Numbered from the stretch's first letter, positions 2,248 to 38,389 are shown. The stretch is 59,253 nt of DNA from an uncultured Candidatus Saccharibacteria bacterium (GCA_964398445.1 CAYNMK010000001.1:1-59253), one strand, 5' to 3'. The notes: generated by a model not told the origin, from the sequence alone. Numbers and translations are program-made.

Positions 2248-3048
2248 ATGAAAAAATTAGGGCAGCATTTTTTAATAAAAAAAAATAAAATTACAAAAAT
2301 TATTGATGCCCTAAATATAAAAAACGATACAATAATTGAAATTGGACCAGGGCACGGAGAAATTACTAAAACATTAATTAATAAACTATTAAATAATCAA
2401 ATTACGAAATTAATTGCAGTTGAAAAAGATCAATTATTAGCTAAAAATTTAGAAGATAAAATTCAAAACTTAAAAATTAAAAATGTTAAAATTATAAAAG
2501 GCGACATATTGAAAATTCTGCCACAACTCCCTGAACCCTGTGGCTTAAATTCTAAATCCTATAAACTTGTCGGCAATATTCCCTATTATATTACGGGTCA
2601 TCTTTTACGAATTATTAGCAACCTAAAAAACAAACCTTTATTAATTATTTTAACAATTCAAAAAGAAGTAGCAGAACGAATTTGCGCTAAAGCGCCACGA
2701 ATGAATCTATTATCAGCCAGTGTCCAATTTTGGGCAAAGCCAAAAATAATTGGCTATATCTCAAAAAATAACTTTCGTCCGCAACCAAAAGTAGACAGCG
2801 CAATAATTAAATTAACCCCTAAATCCTTTAACTTAAATTCTAAATCTTATTACCATCTAATTAAAATCCTTTTTAAGCAACCACGGAAAATGATAATTAA
2901 CAATCTAACTGTGACAATGACTATTGCTATAACAAAAAACGAAATTATTGAAAAATTAAAAAAAATAAATATCAATCCGAACGACAGACCGCAAAATTTA
3001 AATATTGCCCAATTAATTAAACTATCTAAGCTCTTTAATTTACAATAA
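2248..3048 (+). CDS. rsmA: 16S rRNA (adenine1518/1519-N6)-dimethyltransferase RsmA/KsgA
   Basis: 266 aa. GQHFL motif at the N-terminus, SAM-binding EIGPGHGEIT and the GNIPYYIT motif. Confidence 0.85.
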   Translation: MKKLGQHFLIKKNKITKIIDALNIKNDTIIEIGPGHGEITKTLINKLLNNQITKLIAVEKDQLLAKNLEDKIQNLKIKNVKIIKGDILKILPQLPEPCGLNSKSYKLVGNIPYYITGHLLRIISNLKNKPLLIILTIQKEVAERICAKAPRMNLLSASVQFWAKPKIIGYISKNNFRPQPKVDSAIIKLTPKSFNLNSKSYYHLIKILFKQPRKMIINNLTVTMTIAITKNEIIEKLKKININPNDRPQNLNIAQLIKLSKLFNLQ

Positions 3049-3181: not shown

Positions 3182-4039
3182 ATGACGCTCTCAAAAATTA
3201 CAATAATAACTTTAATTATTGGCGCAGGGCTTTTGGGCTCTTACTGGATTATTCAAGATGCCAAACAAACTGCTGGTGAAACTGCAGGATTTTCTTTTGA
3301 ACAAAAAATTAATCTTGAAAATGCGCCTCTTAAGGCTATAAAAGAATCAATTCAAGAAATCCAAAAAATTATTAAAAATGAAAATTTAAATTCTTTAAGC
3401 TTAAACAACCAACTTCCTGAAAATTCTAATAATCTCACTGAAATAGTTGCCAAAGCCGTAGTTAGTGGAATTTTAGAAAAAAATAAGGGCGAATTAACTA
3501 TGACCGAACAAGGCGAGCCAAAACTTTTAATGCCCAATAAAGAAGCCTTGCTCCAAGAATTAACCAATCAACTTGCCAATTTAGACGCTGGTTTACTTAA
3601 TTTAAACCAACCGATTAACAGAGCTGATTTGAAAATATCCCAAGATAACTCTCTGGAAGCGCAAAATAAATATATTGAAGGAATTCGAATAATAACCCAA
3701 GTTCGCTTTGGAAACTTTCCAAAACAAAACATTTCGGACATTTTAGAAAAAACCATTAACACTGGCGACACCACTCAAGTAAAAAAATTATCCAAACTTT
3801 ATAGGTCCGTAATAGGAGATTATTTGGCGCTGGAGGTTCCTTTAAGATGGTTGAATTTTCATAAAAAAGTTTTAACTCATTTCCAAAACGCGGAAGTTAT
3901 TTATTCCACTTTGGCAAACTTTCAAAATGATCCGCTAAAATCTCTTTTGGCAATTGAAGCTTGGTATAAATTGCCACAATCTGCCCAAAAAATTCAAGAG
4001 GTTTTTAAAGCAAAAAGCCTAAAAATAGGATATAATTAA
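3182..4039 (+). CDS. hypothetical membrane-anchored protein, first gene of the T4SS-like block
   Basis: 285 aa with an N-terminal TM helix (ITIITLIIGAGLLGSYWII) followed by a hydrophilic helical domain. No family recognised. Confidence 0.5.
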   Translation: MTLSKITIITLIIGAGLLGSYWIIQDAKQTAGETAGFSFEQKINLENAPLKAIKESIQEIQKIIKNENLNSLSLNNQLPENSNNLTEIVAKAVVSGILEKNKGELTMTEQGEPKLLMPNKEALLQELTNQLANLDAGLLNLNQPINRADLKISQDNSLEAQNKYIEGIRIITQVRFGNFPKQNISDILEKTINTGDTTQVKKLSKLYRSVIGDYLALEVPLRWLNFHKKVLTHFQNAEVIYSTLANFQNDPLKSLLAIEAWYKLPQSAQKIQEVFKAKSLKIGYN

Positions 4040-4128
4040 AATACGATTAATATGAGAAAGAAGAGGATACTTCAGGCCAGACTCCGCAGACCCGACTAGA
4101 ATGCGATTAAATTTTATAAATATTAAAA

Positions 4129-5529
4129 ATGACTTATTTTTTAAAAAAATTTGTTTTAGTCCTCATTATAATTTCCTTAGTGTTTGGCGTTGGTTATTTT
4201 GGTAAAGTTCAAAAAGCTGAAGCAACGCTTCCAGTTATTGACGTTCCGCACATAGCTGAATCAATTATCAGCGAGGCAAAAACGGCATGGAGACACTTAA
4301 TAGATAACTGGAGAAAAATACTAAGAGATATAATTGTTAAACGAATTTTGGACGCAATGGTTGACGATATTGTAAAATGGATTCAGGGTGGTGGAGATCC
4401 GAAGTTTGTCACTGACTGGGGAGGATTTCTTGAAGATGCTTTCCAAGCCGGAGTTGGCGATGTAGCTAAAGAAGTAGGTCTTGCTGCACTTTGCGAACCG
4501 CTCAACATACCAACTCAAAGATTATTAACTCACGCCATCCCAAGGTTTTCTGAACGAATTAAATGCACTCTTGACGACATTGTTGTCAATGTAGAAGATT
4601 TTCATAATAACTTTGAAAGCGGAGGCTGGATTGCCTATGGAAAACTTTTACAGCCGCAGAATAATCATTTCGGTTTAAGCTTAATGATACGTGATGAAAA
4701 AATGTTTCGCGGCGCGAGAGAAAGGGAAGCGGCAAGATTAGAAGGCTTAGCTGGTGGCGGATTTCTTTCAGATAGAAAATGCACAGGAGGATTCGATGCT
4801 GATGGTAATTGTTTAGAATATACCATTGTTACTCCGGGCGACACTATTGGCGGACTCGCGGCTAAGGCCGTTGGCAAAGATATAAACTACATAATTAATG
4901 TAAAATCTTACACAGCAGCTATTACTAACGCTATTATTAATCGTATACTTAGTGAAGGCCTAGCCTTAATGGGGGATAGCGTCAGCCCTGGCGGCATTAC
5001 TTATGATCACAGAGATGTTGGCTATGCAGATGCAGGTCAGCAGGACTTAGAAAACCAAAAACAACAAATGAGACGCGAATACCAAAAATTCCTTAATGAA
5101 AAACAATATATTCTTAACGCAAAAAACCGGTCGCTTTCTTACGCAAGACGAACCCTTCAAATTCTTGAAGATGCCAGAGACAACCACCCGGCTTGCAGAC
5201 CAAGACATAATAGAATTCAATCTATTAAAATTGAAGTTGATCGCTTACATAACGAGACTACTAGGTTAAGAAACATTGTTTATGAACTTAATAATTTAAT
5301 AACTGAAGTTGACAATCTTTCCCATGATAATCTTGCCATAGAAATGTCAAGAATTTTTAACAACTATCAGCGATTCATAAATCAATACAATCTCCGTGGC
5401 ACTCATCGAGATATTATCACTGGCGACAAACGAGCCGCGGCCAATAGAGAAAAAGAGAATAAACGAAACAATCTTGAAGCTACTCAAGAATGGAAAGCCG
5501 ACTGCATTTTTCCTGACGATGATGATTAA
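4129..5529 (+). CDS. hypothetical secreted or membrane-anchored protein with C-terminal coiled coil (T4SS-like block)
   Basis: 466 aa. N-terminal signal/anchor (FVLVLIIISLVFGVGYFG..AEA), several Cys, Gly-rich central part, Q/R/N-rich heptad-like C-terminal third and an acidic DDDD end. Confidence 0.5.
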   Translation: MTYFLKKFVLVLIIISLVFGVGYFGKVQKAEATLPVIDVPHIAESIISEAKTAWRHLIDNWRKILRDIIVKRILDAMVDDIVKWIQGGGDPKFVTDWGGFLEDAFQAGVGDVAKEVGLAALCEPLNIPTQRLLTHAIPRFSERIKCTLDDIVVNVEDFHNNFESGGWIAYGKLLQPQNNHFGLSLMIRDEKMFRGAREREAARLEGLAGGGFLSDRKCTGGFDADGNCLEYTIVTPGDTIGGLAAKAVGKDINYIINVKSYTAAITNAIINRILSEGLALMGDSVSPGGITYDHRDVGYADAGQQDLENQKQQMRREYQKFLNEKQYILNAKNRSLSYARRTLQILEDARDNHPACRPRHNRIQSIKIEVDRLHNETTRLRNIVYELNNLITEVDNLSHDNLAIEMSRIFNNYQRFINQYNLRGTHRDIITGDKRAAANREKENKRNNLEATQEWKADCIFPDDDD

Positions 5530-5622
5530 AATTCCTAAAAACAACGCAATAGAAGTCCATAGGTATTTTAATAAACCATAAAACCAAGTGAAATAAAAAA
5601 TAATTTATAGAAAATCCTTGAA

Positions 5623-5810
5623 TTACGCTATCTGTTTTTTACCCATTGTCATTCTGAGCTACCCACCCTGTCATTCTGAGCTGCCCACCCTGTCATTCTG
5701 AGCCGAAGGCGAAGAATCTCTGTTATTGTCCATAGAGATTCTTCGGCGCTTACAGCGCCTCAGGATGACGAAGGAGGAATTGTCATTCTGAGGCACTTCG
5801 CTTCGCTCAG
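5623..5810. repeat. cluster of GTCATTCTGAG-type palindromic repeats
   Basis: Three abutting units (21, 22 and 22 nt), ..cccaYYSTGTCATTCTGAGC, at 5639-5659, 5660-5681 and 5682-5703. A long imperfect palindrome follows at 5693-5769: GTCATTCTGAG-gccgaaggc-GAAGAATCTCT ..loop.. AGAGATTCTTC-ggcgcttacagcgcc-CTCAGGATGAC. A fourth TGTCATTCTGAG lies at 5781-5792. Confidence 0.8.
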
Positions 5811-5855
5811 CACAGGCTCCGCGAAAAATTTGTTTTGAGTAAAATAAGATAAACT

Positions 5856-7421
5856 ATGGAACCCAAACGAAATAAAAAAAAATTCTTAATAGGAGTTATA
5901 ATTTTAGCGATAATTTTAGTTTTTGGGAGCGTTGAAATTACTAATGCTATCATACCTACTCTCGCAGTTACTGCCGCAAATGTAGCAGATGGCATATCTG
6001 ATATCGGAAATATAGCAACAAGCGCTGTTGTCAACGTTGCAAAGGCTACAGGAACAATACTTGGCGTAATAGCTGGAGTTTTTCTTGTAATTGCTGGCTA
6101 CCTAGTTCAACTTACTTTAAATATTAATTTCCAGCTTATGGAAAGCCCTGTGGTTTTAACTGGATGGCAAATAGTTTTAAACTTTGCCAATATGGGTTTT
6201 GTTTTGGCAATTATTGTAATCGCTTTTGCCACAATTTTGAGGATAGAAACATACGAAATGAAAAAAATCCTCTGGAAGCTTATTGTGGCAGCTCTTTTAG
6301 TTAATTTCAGTTTAGTTATTGCGGGCGCGTTTATTGACATATCTCATTTTTTAGCTATCTATTTCTTAACGCAAGGCGGTATTACAGATCCACTGGCTTG
6401 GTCAAGTGCTTTTGCTGGAATGTTTGAAGCTCAAGCGCTTTTAGCGACAGATGGCGGTCTTGAAGCTGCTGCAGCAGGGGTCGGAATGATTGCATCGGTA
6501 TTCTTTTCCGTATTTTTCACACTTTTAACTGTGTTAACGCTTTTGGCAGTAGCAATAATGTTATTAATTCGCTATGTTGTTTTAGGCATTCTTTTGATTA
6601 TATCTCCAATTGTCTGGCTATTGTGGATTTTCCCAGCAACTGAATCTATTTGGAAGAAATGGTGGACTAAATTTTTGGAATGGGTATTTTTTGCCCCAAT
6701 AATGATATTTTTTATATACTTAGCGCTTCACGCTATGCAAAATCAACCCGAAGTAATGAGAAGCCTATCCGAAGTTCCTATGGAATTTGAGGCTGCTGGC
6801 GAGGCCGTTGGCCTTACTTTTGGCTTCGATATAATTGGAAATATGATAATTGTCATAGGATTAGTGATTGGCGGCTTAATAGCGGCAAAATCTCTAAGCA
6901 TCACTCTTGCTGACGCAACTCTTAATGCAGCGCAGGGCGGAGGCAAAGCTTTCGGTAGCTGGGTTGGTAGAAAGGGAGTAAGAACTGCTGGTTGGTCTTT
7001 TGCTGGTCCAAGCCAAAGAACCCAACAATGGGCGAGACGAACAGACGGCGGAAAAATAAGAAAAATAATAGGTAAAACAGACATATTTGTTCGAGGAAGA
7101 CTTAATAAAATCCCAGTATTAAAAAATCTTGGGCAAGTATACAGAAGAAAAGACGAACATCAAAATATTGCCGCTTCTGTTTGGGGAGGAATGAAATCTG
7201 GTTCTGGATTATTTAAAGGAAAATCTGAAAAAAAAGAAAAAACTGAACAGGTATTGGGTCGTTTATATACCAAGAAATCCTCCTTACAGGGCGAACTTGA
7301 TTTATTACAAAGAATAGCTCCGGGCGCTTTAACCCCACCCCAAAGACAGCGACTCATTGATCTTCCAGTGGAAATATCAAAAGTAAATAACAAAATACAA
7401 GAATTAGAAGCGCAAACATAA
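5856..7421 (+). CDS. polytopic membrane protein, VirB6/TrbL-like candidate
   Basis: 521 aa. N-terminal anchor, then about 7-8 hydrophobic helices across aa 60-370, then a basic hydrophilic tail with a coiled-coil end. The architecture and its position in a VirB4 cluster fit VirB6/TrbL. This is not motif-proven. Confidence 0.5.
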   Translation: MEPKRNKKKFLIGVIILAIILVFGSVEITNAIIPTLAVTAANVADGISDIGNIATSAVVNVAKATGTILGVIAGVFLVIAGYLVQLTLNINFQLMESPVVLTGWQIVLNFANMGFVLAIIVIAFATILRIETYEMKKILWKLIVAALLVNFSLVIAGAFIDISHFLAIYFLTQGGITDPLAWSSAFAGMFEAQALLATDGGLEAAAAGVGMIASVFFSVFFTLLTVLTLLAVAIMLLIRYVVLGILLIISPIVWLLWIFPATESIWKKWWTKFLEWVFFAPIMIFFIYLALHAMQNQPEVMRSLSEVPMEFEAAGEAVGLTFGFDIIGNMIIVIGLVIGGLIAAKSLSITLADATLNAAQGGGKAFGSWVGRKGVRTAGWSFAGPSQRTQQWARRTDGGKIRKIIGKTDIFVRGRLNKIPVLKNLGQVYRRKDEHQNIAASVWGGMKSGSGLFKGKSEKKEKTEQVLGRLYTKKSSLQGELDLLQRIAPGALTPPQRQRLIDLPVEISKVNNKIQELEAQT

Positions 7422-7431
7422 TTATAATAAT

Positions 7432-8604
7432 ATGAACTATTCATTACTTACCGAACAACAACTTCAAAAACGACTTTATTCGTTGCCTGAAAAAATCAGG
7501 GATGTTTTAAATTCTGAAAACAATATAGAGTTTGTACGAAAAATTTGTCAAAATCATTACTTAAATAAAGAAAAAACTTTAATAGTTGAACAATTAACTG
7601 GATTAATTCTTTTAGGATTTGTGTTGCCAGACGAAATGAGCCAAGAAATTAGCGACAAACTACACATAGACAATAAACATTCAAATGATATTGTCAGCGA
7701 AATTAATCGAAAAATTTTTAAACCGATTAAAATAGAGATAGAAACAATATATAGCCCCCTAGCTGAAATTTCGCCAGAAAAACCTTTGCCCGCTCCGACT
7801 ATCACTAAAACCACCACAAACAAAGAAGACACAGCAATAAACGAAAAGATTGTTGACTTAAGGCCTGAATCTGTCCTTGTTAAAACTTCTATTGACGTTA
7901 AAATTCCCGAAATCAAATTATCAGATAAAGAAGAACCAAAAATATCAAAAGAAATTGAAATTTCTAAACCAAAAATTGAAGAAAAATCTGGGCAAACAGA
8001 AAAAACAGATAAAAGAGAAAAGCCAACGCCATCGCCAATAACAGCGCAACAGATAATAAAACAAGAAGAAAAAAATAAAATAACCGATGGCCCGAAAATT
8101 ATCCACGAAGAAAAAAAAATCTCGCCCTTGCTTAATACTAAAAAGAGTTCTTTAGGCGGATTATTTGGATTTCTTAAGAAAGAGAACAAGAAAGAGAAAA
8201 ATTTAATGCCAATAAAAGCGACCATAGAAACACCAACTGATATTAAAGAAATTCAACCTCCTAAAATTACTAAAACAGAAACTTCCAAGCTAAGAGTTGT
8301 TCATTATAGTGATTTGCAAACACCTTCGCCTTTCGGCAAAAACACTGAATCACACAAAATTGCGCAAAAAACAGAAATTGAACCCCTAAAAACTGAAAGG
8401 CCGAAACCACCAGAAAATTTACCGATTACTAAAGCAGAAGAAAAAGTTATCAGCTTAAAGCATAGGCCTGCTTCTGCTAAAATTTCTGTTGACACTAAAG
8501 CTCCCGAAAATAAGTTATCAGACAAAGAACCCGCCATTACTAAAACTACGACGAACAAAGAAGATGTTGTTGACCTAAGAACATTTCAAAGATTTAAACA
8601 ATAA
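7432..8604 (+). CDS. hypothetical protein with N-terminal globular domain and K/E/P/T-rich low-complexity region
   Basis: 390 aa with no TM helix. Contains an internal, circularly permuted repeat (ITKTTTNKED..VDLR and S[IV]D[VT]K[IA]PE[IN]KLSDKE). Confidence 0.5.
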   Translation: MNYSLLTEQQLQKRLYSLPEKIRDVLNSENNIEFVRKICQNHYLNKEKTLIVEQLTGLILLGFVLPDEMSQEISDKLHIDNKHSNDIVSEINRKIFKPIKIEIETIYSPLAEISPEKPLPAPTITKTTTNKEDTAINEKIVDLRPESVLVKTSIDVKIPEIKLSDKEEPKISKEIEISKPKIEEKSGQTEKTDKREKPTPSPITAQQIIKQEEKNKITDGPKIIHEEKKISPLLNTKKSSLGGLFGFLKKENKKEKNLMPIKATIETPTDIKEIQPPKITKTETSKLRVVHYSDLQTPSPFGKNTESHKIAQKTEIEPLKTERPKPPENLPITKAEEKVISLKHRPASAKISVDTKAPENKLSDKEPAITKTTTNKEDVVDLRTFQRFKQ

Positions 8605-8685
8605 AAGCAAATTTATGTAAAACAATGCGCGAATCTTCGCGAAATTTCGCGTTAATATTTACAACTTTCGCCGCTATAAACTTAG

Positions 8686-9234
8686 ATGAATTTCCAAGTC
8701 CCTCAATTTATAAACACAGAAAATAAACTCGTCGGGCCTTTAACTATAAAACAATTCTTATATTTAGCCGGCGCCTTCCTTATTAGCGTCGCTCTTTTTT
8801 ATATTATAGAAATATGGCTTTGGGTTTTATTTACGGTTTTTTTAGCTGCAACAGCGTTAGCCCTAGGCTTTATAAAATATAATGGACAATCATTGCCCAA
8901 AATCATTTGGCTAGCTATAGGATTTTTATGGAAACCGCGACTTTATATCTGGCAAAGAGAAATAATAGAAAAAGAAATTAAAATTCCAAAATTTCCAAAA
9001 ATACCACCCGCAGAAACAATTAATTCCAAAAGAGAAACATTAAAAAAGCTCGCCACTGAAACACCTAATATAAAAAAACTATGGCAAAATCTTTTAACCA
9101 CTAAAAATCCTATTCCAAAAAGAGAAAAAACCATTAAAACGCCTTTTTTGGGCAAAAAACCGAAAGAGAAATTCCAACTTTTTAGAAAAATTACCGGAGA
9201 AAAAGAAATTATCAAAAGAGTGGACTATAGGTGA
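8686..9234 (+). CDS. PrgI-like two-TM protein (VirB3 analogue)
   Basis: 182 aa. N-terminus MNFQVPQFI..E.KLVGPLTIKQFLYL followed by two TM helices, located just upstream of VirB4 as in Gram-positive conjugation loci. Confidence 0.6.
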   Translation: MNFQVPQFINTENKLVGPLTIKQFLYLAGAFLISVALFYIIEIWLWVLFTVFLAATALALGFIKYNGQSLPKIIWLAIGFLWKPRLYIWQREIIEKEIKIPKFPKIPPAETINSKRETLKKLATETPNIKKLWQNLLTTKNPIPKREKTIKTPFLGKKPKEKFQLFRKITGEKEIIKRVDYR

Positions 9235-9266
9235 GCCACTAATGGATTAGCCGCCAATACATCAAT

Positions 9267-9458
9267 ATGATAAATTCGCATAAAGAATACGCTCAATTTA
9301 TTTCTATTGCCTTTGGGTCTGGCGCAGAATTAAAAACTTAGCTATTATTATCAAAGAGATTAAAAATGATATCAAAAAAAGAACTCATTAAGTCAAAAGA
9401 ACTATTAAATGAGATAATGAAAATGTTAAATTCGTTATTGGCAAATTCAAGAAACTAA
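9267..9458 (+). pseudogene. 3' fragment of a four-helix-bundle (23S rRNA-IVS protein / Avd-like) gene with an in-frame TAG
   Basis: Hand translation gives MINSHKEYAQFISIAFGSGAELKT*LLLSKRLKMISKKELIKSKELLNEIMKMLNSLLANSRN*. This matches the C-terminal half of the family (..F..iA.GS..EL.TQL.l...l..i). TAG at 9339-9341 sits where Gln is expected. The N-terminal ~70 aa are absent. Confidence 0.6.
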
Positions 9459-9492
9459 CGCACTAGTGACTAATCGCTGGTGACTAATACCT

Positions 9493-10140
9493 ATGCCTAA
9501 ACAAAGCGCATCAACCCAACAATTTGTAGATATTGAAAATATTAGCAACGATGTAATTATTTTAAAAAACGGTTCTTTGCGTCGAGTTTTGATGGTGGCT
9601 GGAATTAATTTTGAGCTTAAATCTGAAGAAGAGCAAAATATTATTACTTATGCTTACCAGAATTTTTTAAACACATTAAATTTTTCCGTCCAATTTATAA
9701 TCCATTCCCGAAAATTAAATATTGATGGCTATCTTGAAAAATTAGCCGGACGCAAAAAGCAAGAAAACAATGAATTGATGAAAAATCAGATTTCCGAATA
9801 CATAGAATTTATCCGCTTATTTGTTGATCAAAATGCAATAATGACAAAAACTTTCTTTGCCATAGTTCCTTATGACCCAATTCAAATTCCTACTGGCGGT
9901 AAAAAAATTTTTGAAATATTTAAGCTAAAAGGAAAGACACAAACCACTCAAACAGAACGAAATTTAGAACAAAAAATTCAACAACTTAACCATAGAACCG
10001 ACCAAATAATAAATGGGCTTACGCAAATAGGCCTCCGCGTAGTTCCGCTTAACAATGAAGAATTGATTGAATTATTTTATAATCTTTATAATCCGGGCAC
10101 TACAGAAAAAGGGGGATTAAAAATTGCCAAAGAACAATAA
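9493..10140 (+). CDS. VirB4/TrsE-like protein, N-terminal part
   Basis: 215 aa, in the same frame as the next ORF and separated from it only by TAA plus 3 codons. The start (QQFVDIENISNDVIILKNGSLRRVLMVAGINF) resembles the N-terminal domain of Gram-positive-type VirB4. Confidence 0.6.
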   Translation: MPKQSASTQQFVDIENISNDVIILKNGSLRRVLMVAGINFELKSEEEQNIITYAYQNFLNTLNFSVQFIIHSRKLNIDGYLEKLAGRKKQENNELMKNQISEYIEFIRLFVDQNAIMTKTFFAIVPYDPIQIPTGGKKIFEIFKLKGKTQTTQTERNLEQKIQQLNHRTDQIINGLTQIGLRVVPLNNEELIELFYNLYNPGTTEKGGLKIAKEQ

Positions 10141-10149
10141 TATACCAAT

Positions 10150-11895
10150 ATGGAGAAAATAAAAATCCAACAATCTTATATGGCAGGCAAGAAAGACATT
10201 AAAGATATTATCGCGCCAACAGCAATAGAAATTAACCCGAATTACCTGAGATTAGGCAATAAATTTGCAAAAACAATTTTTATCTTTACTTATCCCCGAT
10301 ATCTGTCAACAGGCTGGTTTAATTCAATTATTAACCTTCCTAATCTTCTGGATATTTCCATTTTCGTTCACCCTGTTGAGACAAGCTTAGCATTAAAAAA
10401 TCTTCTTAAAAAAACCGCTCAAATTCAAGCCCAACTTTTAGAACGAGACGAAAAAGGATTAGTTAGAGACCCTATGCTAGAAACCGCTTTTCAAGACATT
10501 GAGGCATTACGCGACATACTTCAGCAATCTCAAGAGCGATTATTTAATGTCGGAGCTTATATTACTATTTATGGAGAAACACTTGAAGAATTAAATAAAT
10601 TAGAAGAAAGCATTAATTTCCTACTTGAAAGCCACTTAATTTACGCGAAACCAACAATTTTTCAACAACTCGAAGGAGTCCAGTCAACTCTGCCACTTGG
10701 GCAAGATAAACTTCTTTTTCATACGCCACTTAACTCTGGTCCAGTTTCTTCTTTTTTTCCATTTGCTTCTACTGATTTAACGTCAGACGAAGGAATACTT
10801 TACGGCATTAATCGCCATAATAATACTTTAGTAATTTTTGACCGTTTTTCTTTAGAAAACGCAAATCAAGTTGTATTCGCAAAAGCCGGGGCAGGCAAAA
10901 GCTACGCCACAAAAATCGAAATTCTTCGCTCTTTAATGATGGGAATAGATGTTTTAATTATTGACCCTGAAAAAGAATATCAAAAATTAGCAGAGTCAGT
11001 CGGCGGAAATTTCTTTAAAATTTCTTTAACTTCAGAAAATCAAATCAATCCTTTTGACATTCCAATTATTCCTGAAGACGAAGAACCCGCTGATATTTTT
11101 AAATCCCATATTCTTAATCTTGCGGGACTACTTAAATTAATGCTTGGCCAAATTACACTTGAAGAAGACGCGCTTTTAGACAGGGCAATTATAGAAACAT
11201 ACGCTTCGCGCGACATTACGCCCGAGAAAAAGGACCTTGCGGATATTCAACCTCCAATTATGGAAGATTTGCAAATTATTTTAGAAAATACCGACGGAGG
11301 ACAAGGGCTGGCCCAACGATTAGAAAAATATACCCGAGGCAGTTATGCCGGCTTCACTAACAAACCGACGAATATTGATATTAAAAACCGCTTAATTGTT
11401 TTTTCAATACGCGACCTAGAAGAACAACTTAGGCCGATTGCAATGTACATTGTTCTAAACTTTATTTGGAATCTTATCCGAGCTGAGCTTAAAAAACGAA
11501 TTATGATTATTGACGAAGCGTGGTGGATGATGAAATATCAGGACAGCGCCTCTTTCCTTTTCGCCCTGGCAAAACGTTGCCGAAAATATTACCTAGGCCT
11601 TACCACCATTACTCAAAATGTCGCTGATTTTCTTGAATCACCTTACGGCCGCCCAATTATTACTAATTCCTCTATTCAATTATTACTAAAGCAATCACCA
11701 GCGACCATAGATTTACTGGCAAAAACCTTTAATCTCACAGAAATGGAAAAACAATTATTATTAGAAGCTGCAATCGGCGAAGGATTATTTTTCGCCGGCT
11801 TAAAACATGTAGCAATTCAAATTGTTCCATCTTATTTTGAAGACAAAATCATTACCACAGACCCAGAACAGTTACTAGAGCAAAAAAAAGATTAG
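10150..11895 (+). CDS. virB4: VirB4/TrsE-like type IV secretion ATPase, ATPase part
   Basis: 581 aa. Walker A AKAGAGKSY and Walker B RIMIIDEAWWMM. The segment TYPRYLSTGWFNSIINL is typical of VirB4/CagE/TrbE-class proteins. Confidence 0.85.
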   Translation: MEKIKIQQSYMAGKKDIKDIIAPTAIEINPNYLRLGNKFAKTIFIFTYPRYLSTGWFNSIINLPNLLDISIFVHPVETSLALKNLLKKTAQIQAQLLERDEKGLVRDPMLETAFQDIEALRDILQQSQERLFNVGAYITIYGETLEELNKLEESINFLLESHLIYAKPTIFQQLEGVQSTLPLGQDKLLFHTPLNSGPVSSFFPFASTDLTSDEGILYGINRHNNTLVIFDRFSLENANQVVFAKAGAGKSYATKIEILRSLMMGIDVLIIDPEKEYQKLAESVGGNFFKISLTSENQINPFDIPIIPEDEEPADIFKSHILNLAGLLKLMLGQITLEEDALLDRAIIETYASRDITPEKKDLADIQPPIMEDLQIILENTDGGQGLAQRLEKYTRGSYAGFTNKPTNIDIKNRLIVFSIRDLEEQLRPIAMYIVLNFIWNLIRAELKKRIMIIDEAWWMMKYQDSASFLFALAKRCRKYYLGLTTITQNVADFLESPYGRPIITNSSIQLLLKQSPATIDLLAKTFNLTEMEKQLLLEAAIGEGLFFAGLKHVAIQIVPSYFEDKIITTDPEQLLEQKKD

Positions 11896-11957
11896 CCATT
11901 AAATCATTAGCCACCAATAATCACCGATGGCTAGCGATTAACAGTTAACAACTAAAA

Positions 11958-12332
11958 ATGGAAGAACAAAAAAAAATATCACTGCCCGAAATAATTCTAA
12001 TGATAATGATTGTCGGAGGAGCAGACTTATTTGATGCGATTACCACTTTAGTTGCGCTTGTTCCAATTATTGGCAAAGTTTTTGTTTTTACAAACATTTT
12101 TGTAGGCATCTTTGTTTTGCTAATTATTCAATTCTGGCTTATACTAAAAGGAGGAATTGGATTTAAAAAACAACTCGTTGTTTTAGTCGGCAATTTAATA
12201 GAACTTATTCCAGGATTAAATATCCTGCCAATTCGCACCCTAACTCTATTAATAGCAATTTATCTGATTAACCATCCAAAAATTATGAAAATCGCTAGTC
12301 GAACGCAAAAAACAATAAAAACAAAAGAATGA
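11958..12332 (+). CDS. small integral membrane protein (T4SS-like block)
   Basis: 124 aa with 3 hydrophobic helices. Its stop overlaps the next start (ATGA at 12329-12332). Confidence 0.5.
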   Translation: MEEQKKISLPEIILMIMIVGGADLFDAITTLVALVPIIGKVFVFTNIFVGIFVLLIIQFWLILKGGIGFKKQLVVLVGNLIELIPGLNILPIRTLTLLIAIYLINHPKIMKIASRTQKTIKTKE

Positions 12333-13033
12333 GTATTAATATTAAAAAACTTAAAAATCTTATTATTTTAATAGTCGCGTTTTTTCTTTTCTCTTTTCTT
12401 TTTGTCCCTTACTCTTTAGGGAGTTCCCCGCAATTCCTTGCCTCTTGGCAGACAAATAGCTATGCCCCTTCATGGTATCAAGGAAAAGTTTTTCCAACTT
12501 TCGGTTCTTTGATTGAAATAAATTTTGAGCTAATTGACAATAATAAAATTGTTGATCTTTCAAAAAATAAAATCCGCTGGCACATTAATAATAGATTAAT
12601 AAAAAATGAAACTGATGGATTGGGAATAAAATTTTTAAAATTCACCAACAATAATCTAATTGGAAGAAATATTGAGATAAAAATAACGATTGTGGATTAT
12701 GGCGATCAACCTTTATTTAAAATTATTCGCATTCCAGTGGTAGCCCCCAAAACTATAATTGACGCGCCGCATCCAAAACGAAAAATAGGCGTCGGAGAAA
12801 ATTTATTCCGAGCTTTGCCATTCTTTTTTAATATTAAAAATTTGGACAAACTTTCTTTTGAGTGGCAAGCTGATAAGCAAACTTCTAATATTACTGAAAA
12901 TCCGCAAGAACTTAATTTAAATATTGACGCCCGAACTCTACCTGGAACTACCATAAGGATTAGGGCAATAATTAAAAATATTGCCAACCAATTAGAATTT
13001 GCGAGTGAAAATATTAAAATAGAAATTAAATAA
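12329..13033 (+). CDS. hypothetical secreted or anchored protein (T4SS-like block)
   Basis: 234 aa with an N-terminal signal/anchor (LIILIVAFFLFSFLFVPYSLG). The remainder looks beta-rich. Translationally coupled to the preceding gene. Confidence 0.5.
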   Translation: MSINIKKLKNLIILIVAFFLFSFLFVPYSLGSSPQFLASWQTNSYAPSWYQGKVFPTFGSLIEINFELIDNNKIVDLSKNKIRWHINNRLIKNETDGLGIKFLKFTNNNLIGRNIEIKITIVDYGDQPLFKIIRIPVVAPKTIIDAPHPKRKIGVGENLFRALPFFFNIKNLDKLSFEWQADKQTSNITENPQELNLNIDARTLPGTTIRIRAIIKNIANQLEFASENIKIEIK

Positions 13034-13060
13034 AAACGAATTTACGAGGATAATAAAAAT

Positions 13061-13597
13061 ATGAAAAAAATAATTTTAAAAATTATTCTAATCATCGCTG
13101 TTATTGCTCCTATATCCCCCTTTCCTTTCTTTTCTTTTGATATAATTTCTGCCTCTACTATCAACTTTGAGCCTAGATATCCATGGCAGGAAGAAGGGGT
13201 AGAAACCCCGACCGAACTAATAAGAGTTATTTACATTTACGCCCTGGGCATTGTTAGCGTTGTTGCCCTAATGGTAATGATTTACGGAGGAATTCTATAC
13301 ACCGCTTCTGCGGGCAACACCTCAAAGCAACAAGAAGCCAAAAATTGGATAACAGGCGCTGTTTTAGGTTTAGCGCTTTTATTGGGCGCCTACTTAATAC
13401 TTTGGACAATTAATCCAGATTTAGTACGATTAAGAGATGCGCACTTTCCTGAGCTGGACGAATTTGAGGTCAGAGGGCCCGACGGTCATATTCCTTATCG
13501 AGGCGAAGGAGGTGGCATAATGCCCGAAGAGCGCCTTACTCCCGTTCCCGGAACGGGGATCCCCTTTAATCAAAACCCCCATCAAGCCCAACAATAA
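13061..13597 (+). CDS. VirB2/TrbC-like T4SS pilin candidate
   Basis: 178 aa. Signal peptide, then two hydrophobic helices (IYIYALGIVSVVALMVMIYGGILY and GAVLGLALLLGAYLILW) separated by a short polar loop, then a Gly/Pro-rich tail. This is pilin-like architecture. Confidence 0.5.
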   Translation: MKKIILKIILIIAVIAPISPFPFFSFDIISASTINFEPRYPWQEEGVETPTELIRVIYIYALGIVSVVALMVMIYGGILYTASAGNTSKQQEAKNWITGAVLGLALLLGAYLILWTINPDLVRLRDAHFPELDEFEVRGPDGHIPYRGEGGGIMPEERLTPVPGTGIPFNQNPHQAQQ

Positions 13598-13624
13598 CTT
13601 AAAAAATAACTAAAATCGCTAAAA

Positions 13625-14812
13625 ATGAAAAAAATATCTATTATTATCAGTATAATACTTGGCTTAATGGCTTTAACAGGTGGCATTTATTTTGCCTGGA
13701 AAAAATCCCAAGAAATTTTAATACCCCCGATATCTCCAGCAATTCAATTTCCAATAGTTCCGATAGCTCCAGAACCTCTAATCCCTGATCTGAAGATTGT
13801 CAGCGACCAACCGATTTTTGATTATTTTATCCTGTATAGCTTTGACAAAAATGAATCGCCAACCTTCATTAAAATTTTTTACATTACTCAAAGCGGCAAA
13901 ATATTCAAAGTTACAGAAGATGCTGAAAATGAACTTATTAGCTCGCAAATAAAAAATAATCTTCAACAAGTTAAATCTAGTAATAATGGCGAAAACATTT
14001 TAATAAAACACGGTGATTTAAATATGCCTCAATTTACTATTTTTAATACAATAGAAAAAACATGGGAATTACTTCCCCGTGGAATTACCGCGGCTGATTT
14101 TTCTCCAGACAATAAAAAAATCGCTTACTTAAAAAGTAATGGCAATAAAAGCGATTTAATCATAAAAAATATAGGCGAAGCAAAGACTACTAAAATTATT
14201 TCTCTTTTTCAAAAAGATTTTGACTTAAAATGGTTAACTGCTAAAAAAATTTTATTACTTCCAAAACCATCTTTTTTGATTAATGCCGACATCTGGGCAA
14301 TTAATATAAAGAATAAAACCCTAAACAAGGCAGCTTCTGGAAAAGGGTTAATGATTAATTGGTCGCCTGACGGCTCTATGGGAATAAAATTCTCTGTTGA
14401 TGAAAGAAGAAATCCTCACCTAGACTTAATAGATAGTAATAAAAGAATTCTTGCGAGTTTTGTTTTCTTAGCTCAAACCGATCACGGAGAACAAGTTCAA
14501 GCTGGCCTAAGACACATATTAACCCTGCCAAACAAATGTTCGTTTAATTTAAATTCAACAAAAATTTACTGCGCTGTCCCGCAGGCATATAACTCTATTG
14601 AAAGACCGAACTTACCGGATGACTATTTAAAACGAGCAGTTTATTTTGATGATTTTATCTATGAAATAGATATTATGCAAAACACTTTTAAAGCAATTCA
14701 CAACGATCCTAAATTAATTATTGACGCCTTCAATCTTTCAGTCCATAATACTCAACTTTTCTTTATTAACCGTTACGATGATATGCTTTACAAACTAAGG
14801 ATTAGCCACTAG
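13625..14812 (+). CDS. membrane-anchored protein with TolB/PD40-like beta-propeller repeats
   Basis: 395 aa with an N-terminal TM helix. Repeat signatures FSPDNKKIAYL and WSPDGSM are typical of PD40/WD40-like propellers. Confidence 0.5.
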   Translation: MKKISIIISIILGLMALTGGIYFAWKKSQEILIPPISPAIQFPIVPIAPEPLIPDLKIVSDQPIFDYFILYSFDKNESPTFIKIFYITQSGKIFKVTEDAENELISSQIKNNLQQVKSSNNGENILIKHGDLNMPQFTIFNTIEKTWELLPRGITAADFSPDNKKIAYLKSNGNKSDLIIKNIGEAKTTKIISLFQKDFDLKWLTAKKILLLPKPSFLINADIWAINIKNKTLNKAASGKGLMINWSPDGSMGIKFSVDERRNPHLDLIDSNKRILASFVFLAQTDHGEQVQAGLRHILTLPNKCSFNLNSTKIYCAVPQAYNSIERPNLPDDYLKRAVYFDDFIYEIDIMQNTFKAIHNDPKLIIDAFNLSVHNTQLFFINRYDDMLYKLRISH

Positions 14813-16636: not shown

Positions 16637-16919
16637 AATAATTACAGTAATTATTGACAACAACTATTGATAAAAAATTACAATAACCATAAACACAATA
16701 ATTAAAGATTAATAACTATATTAGATTTTTATATAATAAAGTATTTTTTTAATTTAATCAATACATTGCAAAATTCAAAAAGTTTTCCACAGATAATTAA
16801 CATATTTAAAACATTTTTGGGTTTGACTAATTTCTATGTCCATATAAAATATAAGCATATTATAATTATTTATCTTCAATGATTAATATTAATAATATAA
16901 ATAAAAATTTTACTATAAT
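16637..16919. other. candidate oriC / dnaA upstream region
   Basis: 283-bp very AT-rich rpmH-dnaA spacer. One DnaA-box-like TTTTCCACA sits at 16783-16791, and the same 9-mer occurs again at 18293-18301 between dnaA and dnaN. 16860-16919 is almost pure A/T (possible DUE). Confidence 0.5.
16823..16850 (+). promoter_or_regulatory. candidate dnaA promoter
   Basis: TTGACT (16823-16828), 16-nt spacer, TAAAAT (16845-16850). Confidence 0.35.
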
Positions 16920-18284
16920 ATGGACTTAAATAAACTATGGCAAACAACTTTATCAGAGCTTGAGCTTCAAATTTCTCGTCCTAATTTTTTAACATGGTTA
17001 AAAAGTAGTCGATTAATTAAAAAAAACGACAATGGACGGGTGTTAATTGGTTTGGCTAACAATTTTACTAAAGAATGGGTAGAAAATAAATATCATAAAA
17101 CAATTTTAAATATTCTCCATTCATTAGATGAAACAATTAAAGGAGTTGAATATACAGTTTTAACAGGAATGCTCAACGGACAGGCGCTAAAGACTCATAT
17201 TGAACAAAAAAAAAATAATCAATTACACCCAAGTTTTCCTGAATTAAAAATAAACCCTGAAACCAATCTTCATCCTCGTTATAATTTAAATTCTTTCGTA
17301 GTTGGATCTTCTAATGAATTAGTTTACGCAGCTGCTTCAGCCGTGATTAAAGAAGTTGGGAAAAAATATAATCCATTTTTTATCTACGGAGGTGTTGGGT
17401 TGGGAAAAACCCACTTAATTCAAGCAATTGGAAATGAAATTCAACAACTTTATAAAAATAAAACAAAGGTAAAATATGTGCCGTCAGAAAAATTTGTTAA
17501 TGAAGTTATTTGGGGAATTCGCAATAAACGAATGGACGACATTAAAAAAAGATATCGCGATGTTGATGTTTTAATTATTGATGATATTCAATTTATCGGC
17601 GGCAAAGAAAGAAGCGAAGAAGAATTTTTTCACACCTTTAATGCCCTTTACGAAAATAATAAACAAATAATTATTTCTTCCGACAGATCGCCTGCCGCCA
17701 TTCCAACACTTGAAGAACGGCTGCGCTCGCGTTTTTTGGGCGGAATGATTGCCGATATTTCACCTCCTGACTATGAAATGAGAGTAGCAATTATAAAAAC
17801 CAAACTTCAAGAAAAAAATAGCACTCTTTCAGATGATCTTTGCGGATTAATCGCTAATAAAATTAGAAAAAATGTTCGCGAAATTGAAGGAATTATAAAT
17901 AAAATTATCTTTTATCAAGAAAATAAAAATATTAATTTAACACTAGATACAATTGAAGAAATTATAAACATATCTATTCAACAATCGGTTAAAAACATCA
18001 ACCCAAAACAAGTTATTGATGCAGTAGCTAAATTTTTTGAAACAACACCTATTGATTTAATCGCCCGCTCAAGAAAAAAAGAAATAGTTGAGCCACGTCA
18101 AATAACAATGTTCCTTTTAAGGGATATACTGGGTTTATCTTACCCATCTATTGGGGAAAAGATGGGGAAAAGAGACCATAGCACCGCAATTCATTCATGT
18201 GAAAAAATCTCGCAAAAAATCAATCAAAATCATAATTTAAACCAAAAAATTATCCTAATTAAGGAATTAATTTATAAACAATAA
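16920..18284 (+). CDS. dnaA: chromosomal replication initiator DnaA
   Basis: 454 aa. Walker A GGVGLGKTHL, Walker B LIIDDIQF, sensor region and C-terminal DNA-binding domain (GKRDHSTAIHS). Confidence 0.95.
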   Translation: MDLNKLWQTTLSELELQISRPNFLTWLKSSRLIKKNDNGRVLIGLANNFTKEWVENKYHKTILNILHSLDETIKGVEYTVLTGMLNGQALKTHIEQKKNNQLHPSFPELKINPETNLHPRYNLNSFVVGSSNELVYAAASAVIKEVGKKYNPFFIYGGVGLGKTHLIQAIGNEIQQLYKNKTKVKYVPSEKFVNEVIWGIRNKRMDDIKKRYRDVDVLIIDDIQFIGGKERSEEEFFHTFNALYENNKQIIISSDRSPAAIPTLEERLRSRFLGGMIADISPPDYEMRVAIIKTKLQEKNSTLSDDLCGLIANKIRKNVREIEGIINKIIFYQENKNINLTLDTIEEIINISIQQSVKNINPKQVIDAVAKFFETTPIDLIARSRKKEIVEPRQITMFLLRDILGLSYPSIGEKMGKRDHSTAIHSCEKISQKINQNHNLNQKIILIKELIYKQ

Positions 18285-22458: not shown

Positions 22459-24123
22459 ATGACAAAAACCATTGAAGAAAAATTAATCCAAATGAAGCAA
22501 GAGGCTGAAGAAAGAGCGGCTCAACGTCAGGCTAAAAAAAGCGATTGTCAATATGTGAATTTGACTACTGTTTCAATTAATATTCAGACATTAGGGATAA
22601 TTTCTGAAGAAATAGCTAAAAAATCAAAAGTTGCGGTAATTAAAATTGAAAGAAAAAAAATAGCTTTAGCGGTTTTTGACCCGCGTACTTCCGATGTAAA
22701 AAATTTAATTAAGGATTTGGAGTTGCAAGGGTATCAAGTTTTAGTTTTTGTCGCTTCTTTAAGTGGATTAAAATATGTCTGGGATTTTTATAAATTTGTT
22801 TTTAAAGAACAGGGACAAATTACTGGTCGAATAGAAATAGAAGAAAAAAAATTAATCAGACTTAAAAGCGCTCTTATCTCATTAAAAAGCATACAGAGAT
22901 TACTTTTGGAAATAATTAAAAAAAATGCGAAAACAGCTGAAATTTTTGAAATTATTTTAGCTGGCGCCTTAGCTAATCGGGCTTCAGATATTCACTTTGA
23001 GCCGGAAGAGCATCAAATAAAATTGCGCTTAAGAATTGATGGTTTGCTTTATAATGTTTTTAGTGAGTTTAAAAAGGGTGATTATTTATATTTAATTTCA
23101 CGGATTAAGCTGTTGTCTCGGCTGAAATTAAATATTCACAATGAACCTCAAGACGGTCGTTTTACTATTGCTCTCTCTGGAGGGGACATTGAAATTAGAA
23201 CATCTATTCTTCCTTCGGAATTTGGCGAAACTATTGTTTTAAGAATTCTTGATCCAAAAGCTATTCAAGTGGGTCTTTCAGAGTTGGGTTTTAGAAAAGA
23301 TGATTTAGAAATTATTGAAAAAGAATTAAGCAGGCCCAACGGGATGATTCTTAATACTGGTCCAACTGGTTCTGGTAAAACCACTGCGTTGTATTCTTTT
23401 TTGAGGAGTATTCAAAAATCGGAAATTAAAACGATTACGATTGAAGATCCGATTGAATATCATCTTGAAGGGGTTGAGCAAACACAAGTTAATCCTGGCG
23501 TTGGCTATACATTTGCTAGTGGTTTGCGTTCTATTTTACGTCAAGACCCCGATATGATTTTGGTTGGTGAAATTCGTGACATAGAAACTGCTGAAATTGC
23601 TATGCATGCGGCTTTGACTGGTCATTTGGTTTTTTCTACTCTTCATACCAACCAGGCTTCTGGCGCCATTCCAAGATTAATTGATATAGGCGCTAAGCCG
23701 TCAATTATTGCGCCAGCTCTTAATTTAATTATTGCTCAACGGTTAATAAGGCGACTTTGCCAATATTGTAAGCTTCCTCAAAAAATTAATTTTGAGATAG
23801 AAAAAAAAATTAAGAATTTTATAAGGAAATTGCCAGCTCGAGTTTTTCAGGGTCAACATCAAGAGATTAAACTTTTTCAAGCTAATGGCTGCGAAAAATG
23901 CAATGGGCTTGGATATAAAGGAAGAATCGGGATTTTTGAACTTCTTTTGATTGATAAAGAGCTTGAAAAAGTCATAGCTATGGCGGTGGTTGGCGCTGAA
24001 ATTAAAAAAATTGCCATTGCCAACGATATGGTTACAATACAACAAGATGGAATTTTAAAAGCTATTTTAGGGTTAACTATGCTGGACGAAGTTGAAAGGA
24101 TTACAGGCCCGCTTGAATTTTAA
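22459..24123 (+). CDS. pilB: GspE/PilB-family secretion ATPase (type IV pilus assembly ATPase-like)
   Basis: 554 aa. Walker A GPTGSGKTT, Asp box ITIEDPIE, Walker B ILVGEIRD, His box LVFSTLHTN and tetracysteine CQYC..CEKC. Confidence 0.85.
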   Translation: MTKTIEEKLIQMKQEAEERAAQRQAKKSDCQYVNLTTVSINIQTLGIISEEIAKKSKVAVIKIERKKIALAVFDPRTSDVKNLIKDLELQGYQVLVFVASLSGLKYVWDFYKFVFKEQGQITGRIEIEEKKLIRLKSALISLKSIQRLLLEIIKKNAKTAEIFEIILAGALANRASDIHFEPEEHQIKLRLRIDGLLYNVFSEFKKGDYLYLISRIKLLSRLKLNIHNEPQDGRFTIALSGGDIEIRTSILPSEFGETIVLRILDPKAIQVGLSELGFRKDDLEIIEKELSRPNGMILNTGPTGSGKTTALYSFLRSIQKSEIKTITIEDPIEYHLEGVEQTQVNPGVGYTFASGLRSILRQDPDMILVGEIRDIETAEIAMHAALTGHLVFSTLHTNQASGAIPRLIDIGAKPSIIAPALNLIIAQRLIRRLCQYCKLPQKINFEIEKKIKNFIRKLPARVFQGQHQEIKLFQANGCEKCNGLGYKGRIGIFELLLIDKELEKVIAMAVVGAEIKKIAIANDMVTIQQDGILKAILGLTMLDEVERITGPLEF

Positions 24124-25383: not shown

Positions 25384-25878
25384 ATGATTATAATTCAAGA
25401 ATTTCTTCCTAATCCTACTGGTAAAGATACTAAGGGCGAGTGGATAAAATTATTTAACAGTGGCAATAAAGAAGTTAATCTTGTTAATTGGCAAATAAAA
25501 GACGCCTCAGGAAAAACTTTTGTTTTTGATTCGTTTAATTTTGGGCCGAACGAATTTTTAATTCTTGATCATCAATCTACTAAAATATTTTTAAATAATA
25601 ATGGCGAAACTATATTTCTTTTTGATGAAAATAATAATTTAATTGATCAGTTGGGATTTTCCTGGATGGCTACTAATGATGAAATTATCACAAAAAATGC
25701 AATATTAAAAGGTTCGGATATTGGTTTAGTTCAAAATCAGGCTGAAATTTTTCCAATAATTAATCCCTCAAGTCAATCCGTATCTAATTTTGATTTTTTA
25801 TTAATTGGCTTGGCAATTTGTTTAGTTTTATCGTTTTTATTTATGGTAATTATTAAGCACGTAAGACATAAAGAGTGA
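25384..25878 (+). CDS. lamin-tail-domain (LTD) protein with C-terminal TM anchor
   Basis: 164 aa. LTD-type start IQEFLPNPTGKDTKGEWIKLFNSGNKEVNLVNWQIKD and a C-terminal helix (FDFLLIGLAICLVLSFLFMVII). Confidence 0.6.
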   Translation: MIIIQEFLPNPTGKDTKGEWIKLFNSGNKEVNLVNWQIKDASGKTFVFDSFNFGPNEFLILDHQSTKIFLNNNGETIFLFDENNNLIDQLGFSWMATNDEIITKNAILKGSDIGLVQNQAEIFPIINPSSQSVSNFDFLLIGLAICLVLSFLFMVIIKHVRHKE

Positions 25879-33454: not shown

Positions 33455-33547
33455 ATTTCTAATCTTTTGCAAAGCTCAGAATGATAAAATAAGGCAGTAT
33501 AATTTAGGGATTTACTTTTGAATCATTTTTTATTATTATTAAAAGTA

Positions 33548-37820: not shown

Positions 37821-37839
37821 AAATTTTTAAATTTTAAAC

Positions 37840-38313: not shown

Positions 38314-38389
38314 GAATTAAGACTAATTAACACATTAAGCTGATATTAGTTTTTAGGTTTTGTGTAGTTTTTATGAACAAATTGAAGCA

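Follow-up and report, generated by a model that had tools for sequence, protein, structure and literature searches.

A probable relaxase-less type IV secretion system encoded beside dnaA in a Wolfebacteria-like member of the Patescibacteria

Patescibacteria, which live attached to other microbes, may account for at least a quarter of bacterial diversity; a conserved type IV secretion system (T4SS) is a leading candidate for how they obtain building blocks from their hosts or manipulate them. In a survey of 3035 of their genomes, Quinonero-Coronel et al. 2025 (PMC12102498) described a monophyletic VirB4 clade nested in MPF_FATA, with TrsD as the commonest associated component and with PrgI/VirB3, VirB6 and VirB2-like pilins of the PF18895 family near virB4. 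Homologs of the type IV coupling protein (T4CP) lie mostly distant from virB4 and are not essential in S. epibionticum; 109 relaxases were counted, 15 of them near virB4, and very divergent ones, the survey states, cannot be excluded. In Paceibacteria and Microgenomatia the locus stands beside dnaA, dnaN, rnpA, ksgA and rpmH. Here we analyse such a locus at positions 3182-14812 of a 59,253-nucleotide stretch of DNA (CAYNMK010000001.1, assembly GCA_964398445.1), the whole of which we call the window. Its eleven genes, g1 to g11, very probably encode a chromosomal, Patescibacteria-type T4SS without a relaxase, inherited vertically beside the replication origin.

By transposon sequencing, Wang et al. 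2023 (PMC10633639) showed that S. epibionticum requires its T4SS (SEML1_0006-0019), pilins included, for epibiotic growth; the locus has no recognisable relaxase or coupling protein. No T4SS before it had been shown to be indispensable for the survival of its bearer (PMC10633639, PMC12857230). A review notes that such systems could elaborate conjugative pili (PMC12857230), and a 2025 FEMS nomenclature review lists them as a new T4SS group. A 2024 PNAS perspective called their role completely unknown, mentioning effector delivery or nucleotide acquisition, and a 2026 preprint describes tube-like structures, maybe T4SS pili, at a parasite-host interface, together with acquisition of host RNA. 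The phylum lacks nucleotide synthesis, according to the review literature. Systems of this kind, without a relaxase and close to the origin, were already published between 2023 and 2025. A first-pass annotation of the window had read the block as a domesticated, chromosomally fixed T4SS-like apparatus, not a mobile conjugation system: this is correct but not new, since PMC12102498 already describes the system, the missing relaxase and the dnaA-side position. The window is a well-annotated, complete example from the Wolfebacteria lineage rather than a discovery, and our additions are modest: a link between g1 and g2, a size estimate for the g2 family, a modelled fold for g9, the assignment of g11 as TolB-like and the TrsD-VirB4 fusions in four lineages.

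Proteins were scanned with the hidden Markov models (HMMs) of Pfam and NCBIfam, the Pfam scan of the whole window taking open reading frames (ORFs) of at least 110 residues. A scan of species-representative genomes returned 80 related loci, from Wolfe-, Harrison-, Jorgensen-, Terry-, Azam-, Nomura-, Giovannoni-, Kaiser-, Zambryski- and Taylorbacteria, among others. Presence counts refer to the loci whose flank reaches 8 kb or more, 46 on the upstream side and 44 on the downstream side. AlphaFold models were made for g2 and g9 and then compared by Foldseek. The genes of the block are the following.

3182-4039, + strand: g1, a 285-residue protein with an N-terminal membrane anchor (transmembrane segment at residues 1-19).
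4129-5529, + strand: g2, a 466-residue anchored or secreted protein with an N-terminal transmembrane segment and a C-terminal helical bundle.
5856-7421, + strand: g3, a polytopic protein and, through its orthologs, a putative and divergent VirB6/TrbL protein, the channel subunit of the translocon.
7432-8604, + strand: g4, 390 residues and no transmembrane segment, with a conserved N-terminal domain of about 110 residues and a low-complexity tail rich in K, E, P and T.
8686-9234, + strand: g5, a PrgI/VirB3-like membrane protein (PF12666), of the kind that anchors VirB4 to the membrane.
9493-10140, + strand: g6, a TrsD-like protein (NCBIfam TrsD/TraD), the detached N-terminal domain of VirB4.
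10150-11895, + strand: g7, the VirB4 ATPase, of MPF_FATA / CD1110 type (NF045971, PF19044).
11958-12332, + strand: g8, a 124-residue multi-pass membrane protein with three to four hydrophobic segments.
12329-13033, + strand: g9, an N-terminal transmembrane helix followed by two tandem Ig/FnIII-like beta-sandwiches (AlphaFold, Foldseek).
13061-13597, + strand: g10, a T4SS pilin of the VirB2/TrbC-like kind, in which a signal peptide is followed by two hydrophobic helices and a tail rich in Pro and Gly.
13625-14812, + strand: g11, an N-terminally anchored TolB/PD40-like beta-propeller (transmembrane segment at residues 6-24).

All eleven ORFs are present, intact and co-oriented, as the first-pass annotation had it. 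From g1 to g11 the gaps between them are 89, 326, 10, 81, 258, 9, 62, -4, 27 and 27 nt. The negative value is the ATGA overlap of g8 and g9 at 12329-12332, by which the two genes are predicted to be translationally coupled.

The motor of the system, the VirB4 ATPase g7, scores 375.6 bits on the NCBIfam model of VirB4-like CD1110 proteins (NF045971, cutoff 325) and 87 bits on PF19044. Its Walker A (AKAGAGKSY, residues 244-252) and Walker B (IIDEAWW, residues 453-459) motifs, already pointed out in the first-pass annotation, are both invariant among 20 orthologs. The best matches to g7, proteins of Wolfebacteria and other Patescibacteria, are 72-88% identical to it, and VirB4 identity spans 59-88% over the 80 species loci; among at least 5000 plasmid VirB4 proteins compared, the best has 34.5% identity and the closest come from Firmicutes and Actinobacteria. 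Judged by similarity rather than by a tree, this points strongly to a place of g7 within the monophyletic Patescibacteria VirB4 clade. Weak matches were also recorded on the NCBIfam families CedB (38.7 bits) and CedD, whose cutoffs are 700 and 600 bits.

The first-pass annotation had left the gene directly upstream, g6, unnamed. It matches NCBIfam TrsD/TraD with 41.5 bits (E = 1.2e-10), as well as the N-terminal parts of VirB4 models: along the CD1110 profile, g6 covers positions 1 to about 180 and g7 positions 181-733. A TrsD gene was found in 78 of the 80 loci; it is separate from VirB4 in 74 of these and fused to it in the other four, where a single ORF of about 770-790 residues encodes both (L031:9380-11752, L010:788-3160, L071:9368-11674 and L006:746-3106). 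The two fused ORFs scanned with Pfam, those of L031 and L010, contain an N-terminal TraC_F_IV domain and P-loop domains. The presence of both in one ORF in four relatives directly confirms TrsD as the N-terminal domain of VirB4. In the window, g6 and g7 share a frame, separated by a TAA codon, 9 nt and an ATG. An origin of the split by frameshift or read-through was nevertheless ruled out: the frames of the two genes differ in 56 of the 74 split loci and four loci are truly fused, so that the split is native.

Directly upstream of the two VirB4 genes in the block, g5 scores 42.1 bits on the PrgI family PF12666 (gathering score 27); the VirB4 and PrgI assignments of the first-pass annotation are thus both above their cutoffs. 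PrgI and TrsD are each kept in 46 of 46 loci. The polytopic protein g3, with seven predicted transmembrane segments, has no direct Pfam match of its own. Its proposed VirB6/TrbL character is supported through orthology: 4 of 25 syntenic orthologs match PF04610 (best E = 1.3e-7), and in the ortholog of L049 (26.5 bits, gathering score 25.9) the matching region aligns with residues 216-338 of g3. The gene is kept in 41/46 loci. A pilin candidate had also been named in the first-pass annotation, and g10 does score 34.6 bits on the T4SS_pilin family PF18895, above the gathering score of 26.6; its hydrophobic segments lie at residues 4-22, 56-74 and 96-114, and it is kept in 31/44 loci. The window contains no paralog of the pilin or other duplicated part.

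Besides, g10 matches the Mycoplasma ICE pilin-like family NF045849 (Mbov_0395) with 28 bits (E = 1.2e-6; below the cutoff of 40), and g6 and g7 match the family of the Mycoplasma VirB4 Mbov_0397 (285 bits), whose curated cutoff is 590. From these two resemblances, VirB2-like proteins may already be present in some monoderm FATA-type systems, which bears on the published idea of a pilin taken over from diderm systems.

The block is a chromosomal fixture and not an integrative and conjugative element (ICE). On one side it is bordered by rsmA/ksgA (2248-3048, PF00398), on the other by a convergent run of jag (R3H), yidC, rnpA and rpmH, followed by dnaA (16920-18284), which starts 2.1 kb past the end of g11, and by dnaN. 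The order rsmA-T4SS-jag-yidC-dnaA is collinear in 79 of the 80 species-level relatives; dnaA and yidC are found within 10 kb in 42/44 loci, and rsmA is kept in 36/46. The synteny comparison that the first-pass annotation had proposed as a check therefore finds the block kept at the same place. VirB4 identity also correlates with the identity of DnaA, DnaN and YidC (r = 0.93-0.95). Since the order is collinear and VirB4 diverges along with these core proteins, the block is vertically inherited at a fixed site.

Mobility genes are missing, as the first-pass annotation had it. Pfam scans of the window ORFs gave no relaxase, integrase, VirB11 or VirB1-type hydrolase, and no tRNA gene was found in the 59 kb. 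A tblastn search with the relaxase (PcfG), integrase, T4CP (PcfC), PrgK and PrgL of pCF10 returned nothing in the window or in the 80 loci; only VirB4 was found. The window thus holds no detected relaxase, by which an ICE would be recognised; oriT was not searched for. With its closest plasmid VirB4 proteins in Firmicutes and Actinobacteria, the block very probably descends from monoderm (MPF_FATA) conjugation machinery and has lost the DNA-processing half.

The housekeeping flanks are those that had been claimed in the first-pass annotation, with one reservation: it had also placed oriC there. The minimum of the cumulative GC skew, at about 17-19 kb of the window, fits an origin at this place. 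The E. coli DnaA-box consensus TTATCCACA, with one mismatch allowed, occurs 14 times in the window against 15 expected; near dnaA, in a scan that included 16664-16919, we found only the copies of TTTTCCACA at 16783 and 18293. As the consensus is not enriched, GC skew and gene order suggest, rather than demonstrate, an oriC near dnaA.

The source genome is Wolfebacteria-like (Paceibacteria). Many loci that combine a Paceibacteria-type VirB4 (59-76% identity) with the same synteny are titled 'uncultured Candidatus Saccharibacteria' (L005, L006, L009, L010, L013 and others), and one protein at 75% identity carries a Spirochaetota label. Such labels on Paceibacteria-type loci probably reflect generic or wrong taxonomy, or mis-binned contigs.

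Around the core stand six accessory proteins. The first-pass annotation had counted at least six of the eleven products as matching no nameable family; this number now falls to four, namely g1, g2, g4 and g8. Neither Pfam nor NCBIfam has a match for g1, which is detectable by tblastn in 8 of the 80 loci. In two relatives, one ORF of about 720 residues joins a g1-like and a g2-like part and ends in a PKD domain (L020:2378-4555 and L022:2384-4519). By the Rosetta-stone argument, this fusion links g1 and g2 functionally.

A conserved, Cys-containing domain of g2, at about residues 80-290, carries the motif WIQGGGxPxFVTDW..LCxPF..CTL..GGW..PQNN..GFLS. No Pfam or PDB relative was found for it, profiles of orthologs included, and the family has none in NCBIfam. 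The family is large: a profile search gathers 5648 cluster representatives at E<=1e-3, with 2593 left at E<=1e-30, and a look-up of cluster members gave almost no names for the distant relatives. Some orthologs carry the surface domains CHB_HEX_C, Fn3 or PKD, and g2 is kept in 27/46 loci. Its AlphaFold model has a mean pLDDT of 66.7 and is confident only in the helical part, at about residues 300-460; Foldseek returned nothing with E below 0.1. We considered g2 as a lytic transglycosylase or as VirB5, and the ortholog Pfam scans, PDB profiles, AlphaFold model and Foldseek search gave neither support nor exclusion.

For g4 no Pfam or PDB match was obtained, the ortholog set included. Its place between VirB6 and PrgI is the one taken by SEML1_0011 and 0012 in the Saccharibacteria locus. 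Next to VirB4, g8 has no Pfam or NCBIfam match, and none in the PDB when an ortholog profile is used; the motif E-x-IP-x(5)-LP-x-RT is conserved among 13 orthologs. As candidates, PrgF or PrgG of pCF10 for g8 and PrgH for g3 gave profile-versus-sequence probabilities below 2%, an uninformative result as a single-sequence template is weak.

The model of g9 is confident (mean pLDDT 92.4), and its top Foldseek matches are the Fn3 modules of CbhA (3pdd, E = 1.2e-7), Hoc and the SiiE adhesin. With two Ig/Fn3 sandwiches and no NTF2 fold, it is excluded as the missing VirB8; by its modelled fold, g9 would be an extracellular spacer or an adhesin-like protein. It was detected in 21/44 loci, and in 14 of 16 closer ones. 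As for g11, a single-sequence search of Pfam gives no match, whereas the ortholog profile finds TolB propeller structures in the PDB (E = 4.4e-13), which supports the PD40 propeller named in the first-pass annotation. On TIGR02800 the single sequence obtains E = 7.6e-4 and 18.5 bits against a cutoff of 343, so that g11 is a propeller protein and not a TolB ortholog; no tol or pal partner gene occurs among the window ORFs scanned with Pfam. The Cys pair C305/C316 is conserved and the gene is kept in 33/44 loci.

Two of the spacers and one distant region hold further features.

5530-5855, no strand assigned: spacer between g2 and g3 with a REP/MITE-like repeat (5618-5830) made of four copies of TGTCATTCTGAG and two hairpins.
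9235-9492, + strand: spacer of 258 nt between prgI and trsD, with the decayed remnant of a 23S_rRNA_IVP (four-helix-bundle) gene.
38360-39757, + strand: VirD4/T4CP-like P-loop ATPase without a transmembrane segment, 24 kb from the block.

The repeat between g2 and g3 is an insertion and not a part of the machine. It is laid out as three tandem units of 22 nt, a fourth copy and two hairpins; the window contains eight copies of TGTCATTCTGAG in total (one mismatch allowed) against 0.11 expected, with further sites near 33475, 35090, 45667 and 45733, and the repeat is found also at L019:2562-2800. The remnant between prgI and trsD is likewise not a machine part. Positions 9282-9488 of the window are 86% identical to L002:10059-10265, the middle of the window copy being deleted; in L002 an intact ORF of 118 residues (10089-10445, - strand) scores 133.8 bits on PF05635 and stands elsewhere in the block, in reverse orientation between g11 and jag. 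Such a pattern resembles that of a small, selfish gene shifting its place within the locus. An Rfam scan of the window gave zero matches.

The first-pass annotation had named a sole coupling-ATPase-like gene 24 kb away, and this gene is indeed present. It scores 30.1 bits on TrwB_AAD_bind (PF10412) and 49.9 bits on the VirD4-like CD1115 model (NF045973), far below the cutoff of 250; its Walker A motif, GKSGTGKS, begins at residue 73. Two proteins with N-terminal transmembrane anchors and no assigned family, of 453 and 157 residues, directly precede it at 36459-38313, and the trio at 36459-39757 may be one module that gives the ATPase a membrane anchor. The window encodes other candidates for host interaction: a PilB-type T2SSE ATPase at 22459-24123 (type IV pilus motor), a small Lamin-tail-domain (LTD) protein at 25384-25878 and an 899-residue LTD and PKD protein at 55262-57961.

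We propose the following working model. By homology, the VirB6-like g3 and the PrgI/VirB3-like g5 most likely form the translocon of the cytoplasmic membrane; the two-polypeptide VirB4 (g6 and g7) docks on it and supplies its energy. As in T4SS biology in general, VirB4 would drive assembly of the channel and pull the VirB2-like g10 from the membrane into an extracellular pilus or tube. The anchored g1/g2, g9 and g11 could then bridge the wall or remodel it, and tether the apparatus to the host cell, standing in for VirB8, VirB1 and an adhesin; their surface exposure is supported by the N-terminal transmembrane anchors, the Ig-like domains of g9, the propeller of g11 and the PKD, Fn3 and CHB_HEX_C domains of g2 orthologs. 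Altogether, the apparatus would connect the episymbiont with its host as a conduit that depends on contact and is not conjugative. On its cargo our views are more divided. We lean tentatively to the uptake of host macromolecules such as nucleic acids, by analogy with ComB and Ced, because no coupling protein is adjacent and the phylum lacks nucleotide synthesis; export of effector proteins is a less favoured, still quite plausible possibility, and another cargo or direction accounts for what is left.

Three other explanations have to be weighed against a functional T4SS of the Patescibacteria type. Could VirB4, VirB6 and PrgI assemble attachment pili only, with no traffic through a channel? 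A pilin gene stands in the block together with several Ig-like and propeller proteins exposed at the surface, the nearest genes include no coupling protein, and the pilus-elaborating potential noted in PMC12857230 would suit such a role. Yet these genomes already have type IV pili for attachment and motility (PilB in the window, and the literature), a strictly conserved VirB6-type channel subunit exceeds the need of known pilus-only functions, and essentiality in Saccharibacteria is independent of type IV pili; we consider a pure pilus or adhesin improbable. That the block is an ordinary ICE or its transfer region, with relaxase, integrase and att sites outside the window or too divergent, is very unlikely. 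The VirB4, PrgI, TrsD and pilin families were first defined on conjugative elements, a weak VirD4-like ATPase does lie 24 kb away, and the caveat of PMC12102498 on divergent relaxases applies here too. Against this, relaxase, integrase, tRNA and flanking repeats were not found in 59 kb, relaxases near virB4 are rare in the same survey, and the block holds one site and one order across many Paceibacteria families while diverging with core genes. Least credible of all is a decaying, non-functional remnant of an ancient conjugative element, to which one might ascribe the VirB4 in two ORFs, the repeat and pseudogene in the spacers, and the missing VirB1, VirB8, T4CP and relaxase: the eleven ORFs are intact, VirB4 is conserved over 80 species with invariant catalytic motifs, its two-gene form is native and conserved, with differing frames in most loci, and Saccharibacteria depend on the homolog for epibiotic growth. 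Moreover, 11.6 kb kept in a strongly reduced genome implies selection.

Several observations do weigh against the T4SS reading itself, or against parts of the working model. Our searches assigned no family or fold to g1, g2, g4 and g8, and the conserved domain of g2 is poorly modelled. No VirB1-type hydrolase domain occurs in the block, in agreement with the negative PrgK and PrgL searches, and no VirB8-like (NTF2) protein was identified there, with g9 an Ig/Fn3 protein and g1, g4 and g8 not modelled. Pilus formation is suggested by the HMM match of the pilin, and it is uncertain whether the ATPase at 38360-39757 belongs to the T4SS. A promoter and terminator scan of the block gave promoter-like matches at chance level and a modest excess of terminators that sets no operon boundaries. 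Finally, the function is extrapolated, by analogy, from a different class, the Saccharimonadia.

The T4SS reading nevertheless leaves concrete structural and genetic targets: the conserved accessory proteins g1/g2, g4, g8, g9 and g11 co-occur with the core. As a speculation, and one we think rather unlikely, g1/g2, g9 and g11 might constitute a Paceibacteria-specific extracellular docking module that replaces VirB8, VirB1 and adhesin parts, with the helical g2 as a VirB5-like subunit for the pilus tip or host recognition. If true, the outer half of such a T4SS would be new in structure.

With the Gram-positive MPF_FATA systems (pCF10 Prg/Pcf; pGO1/pSK41 Trs) the locus shares a PrgI directly before VirB4, a VirB4 of CD1110 type, a polytopic VirB6-type protein upstream and the lack of outer-membrane core parts. 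TrsD has a small gene of its own here, as it does in the pGO1 subclass. Compared to pCF10, the relaxase, adjacent T4CP, PrgK-type hydrolase, PrgL/VirB8 and PrgB adhesin are undetectable in the window, and profile comparison gives no link between g8 and PrgF/PrgG or between g3 and PrgH. A VirB2-like pilin is present in the window, whereas the Gram-positive systems are without one; in contrast to plasmid FATA systems, that of the window is chromosomal and vertically inherited. The transfer module of Mycoplasma ICEs, from another wall-poor monoderm lineage, likewise has a VirB2-like protein together with a FATA-type VirB4. Mycoplasma ICEs carry their own DDE recombinase and are mobile, unlike the block described here.

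H. pylori ComB and archaeal Ced are, like the window system, chromosomal, non-conjugative and driven by a VirB4-type ATPase. ComB is linked to DNA uptake and Ced imports DNA; both do so as systems without a T4CP, and neither is known to have a relaxase. ComB is a diderm system of VirB2-4 and VirB6-10, unlike that of the window. ComEC-based competence is separate from the T4SS and dispensable in S. epibionticum ML1.

The closest relatives remain the T4SS of the Patescibacteria clade, with which the window shares the same set of VirB4, separate TrsD, PrgI/VirB3, VirB6 and PF18895 pilin, the missing relaxase, a distant candidate T4CP homolog and the position on the dnaA side. It differs in that no NTF2 (VirB8-like) protein, peptidase or lysozyme was found beside its virB4; of its Paceibacteria-specific accessory genes, the main text of PMC12102498 makes no mention of the g1/g2 family, of g9 with its two Ig-like domains or of the TolB-like g11. 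The ML1 locus has an array of six pilin genes where the window has a single one, and its core order, VirB6, X, PrgI, likely TrsD and VirB4, is the order found here.

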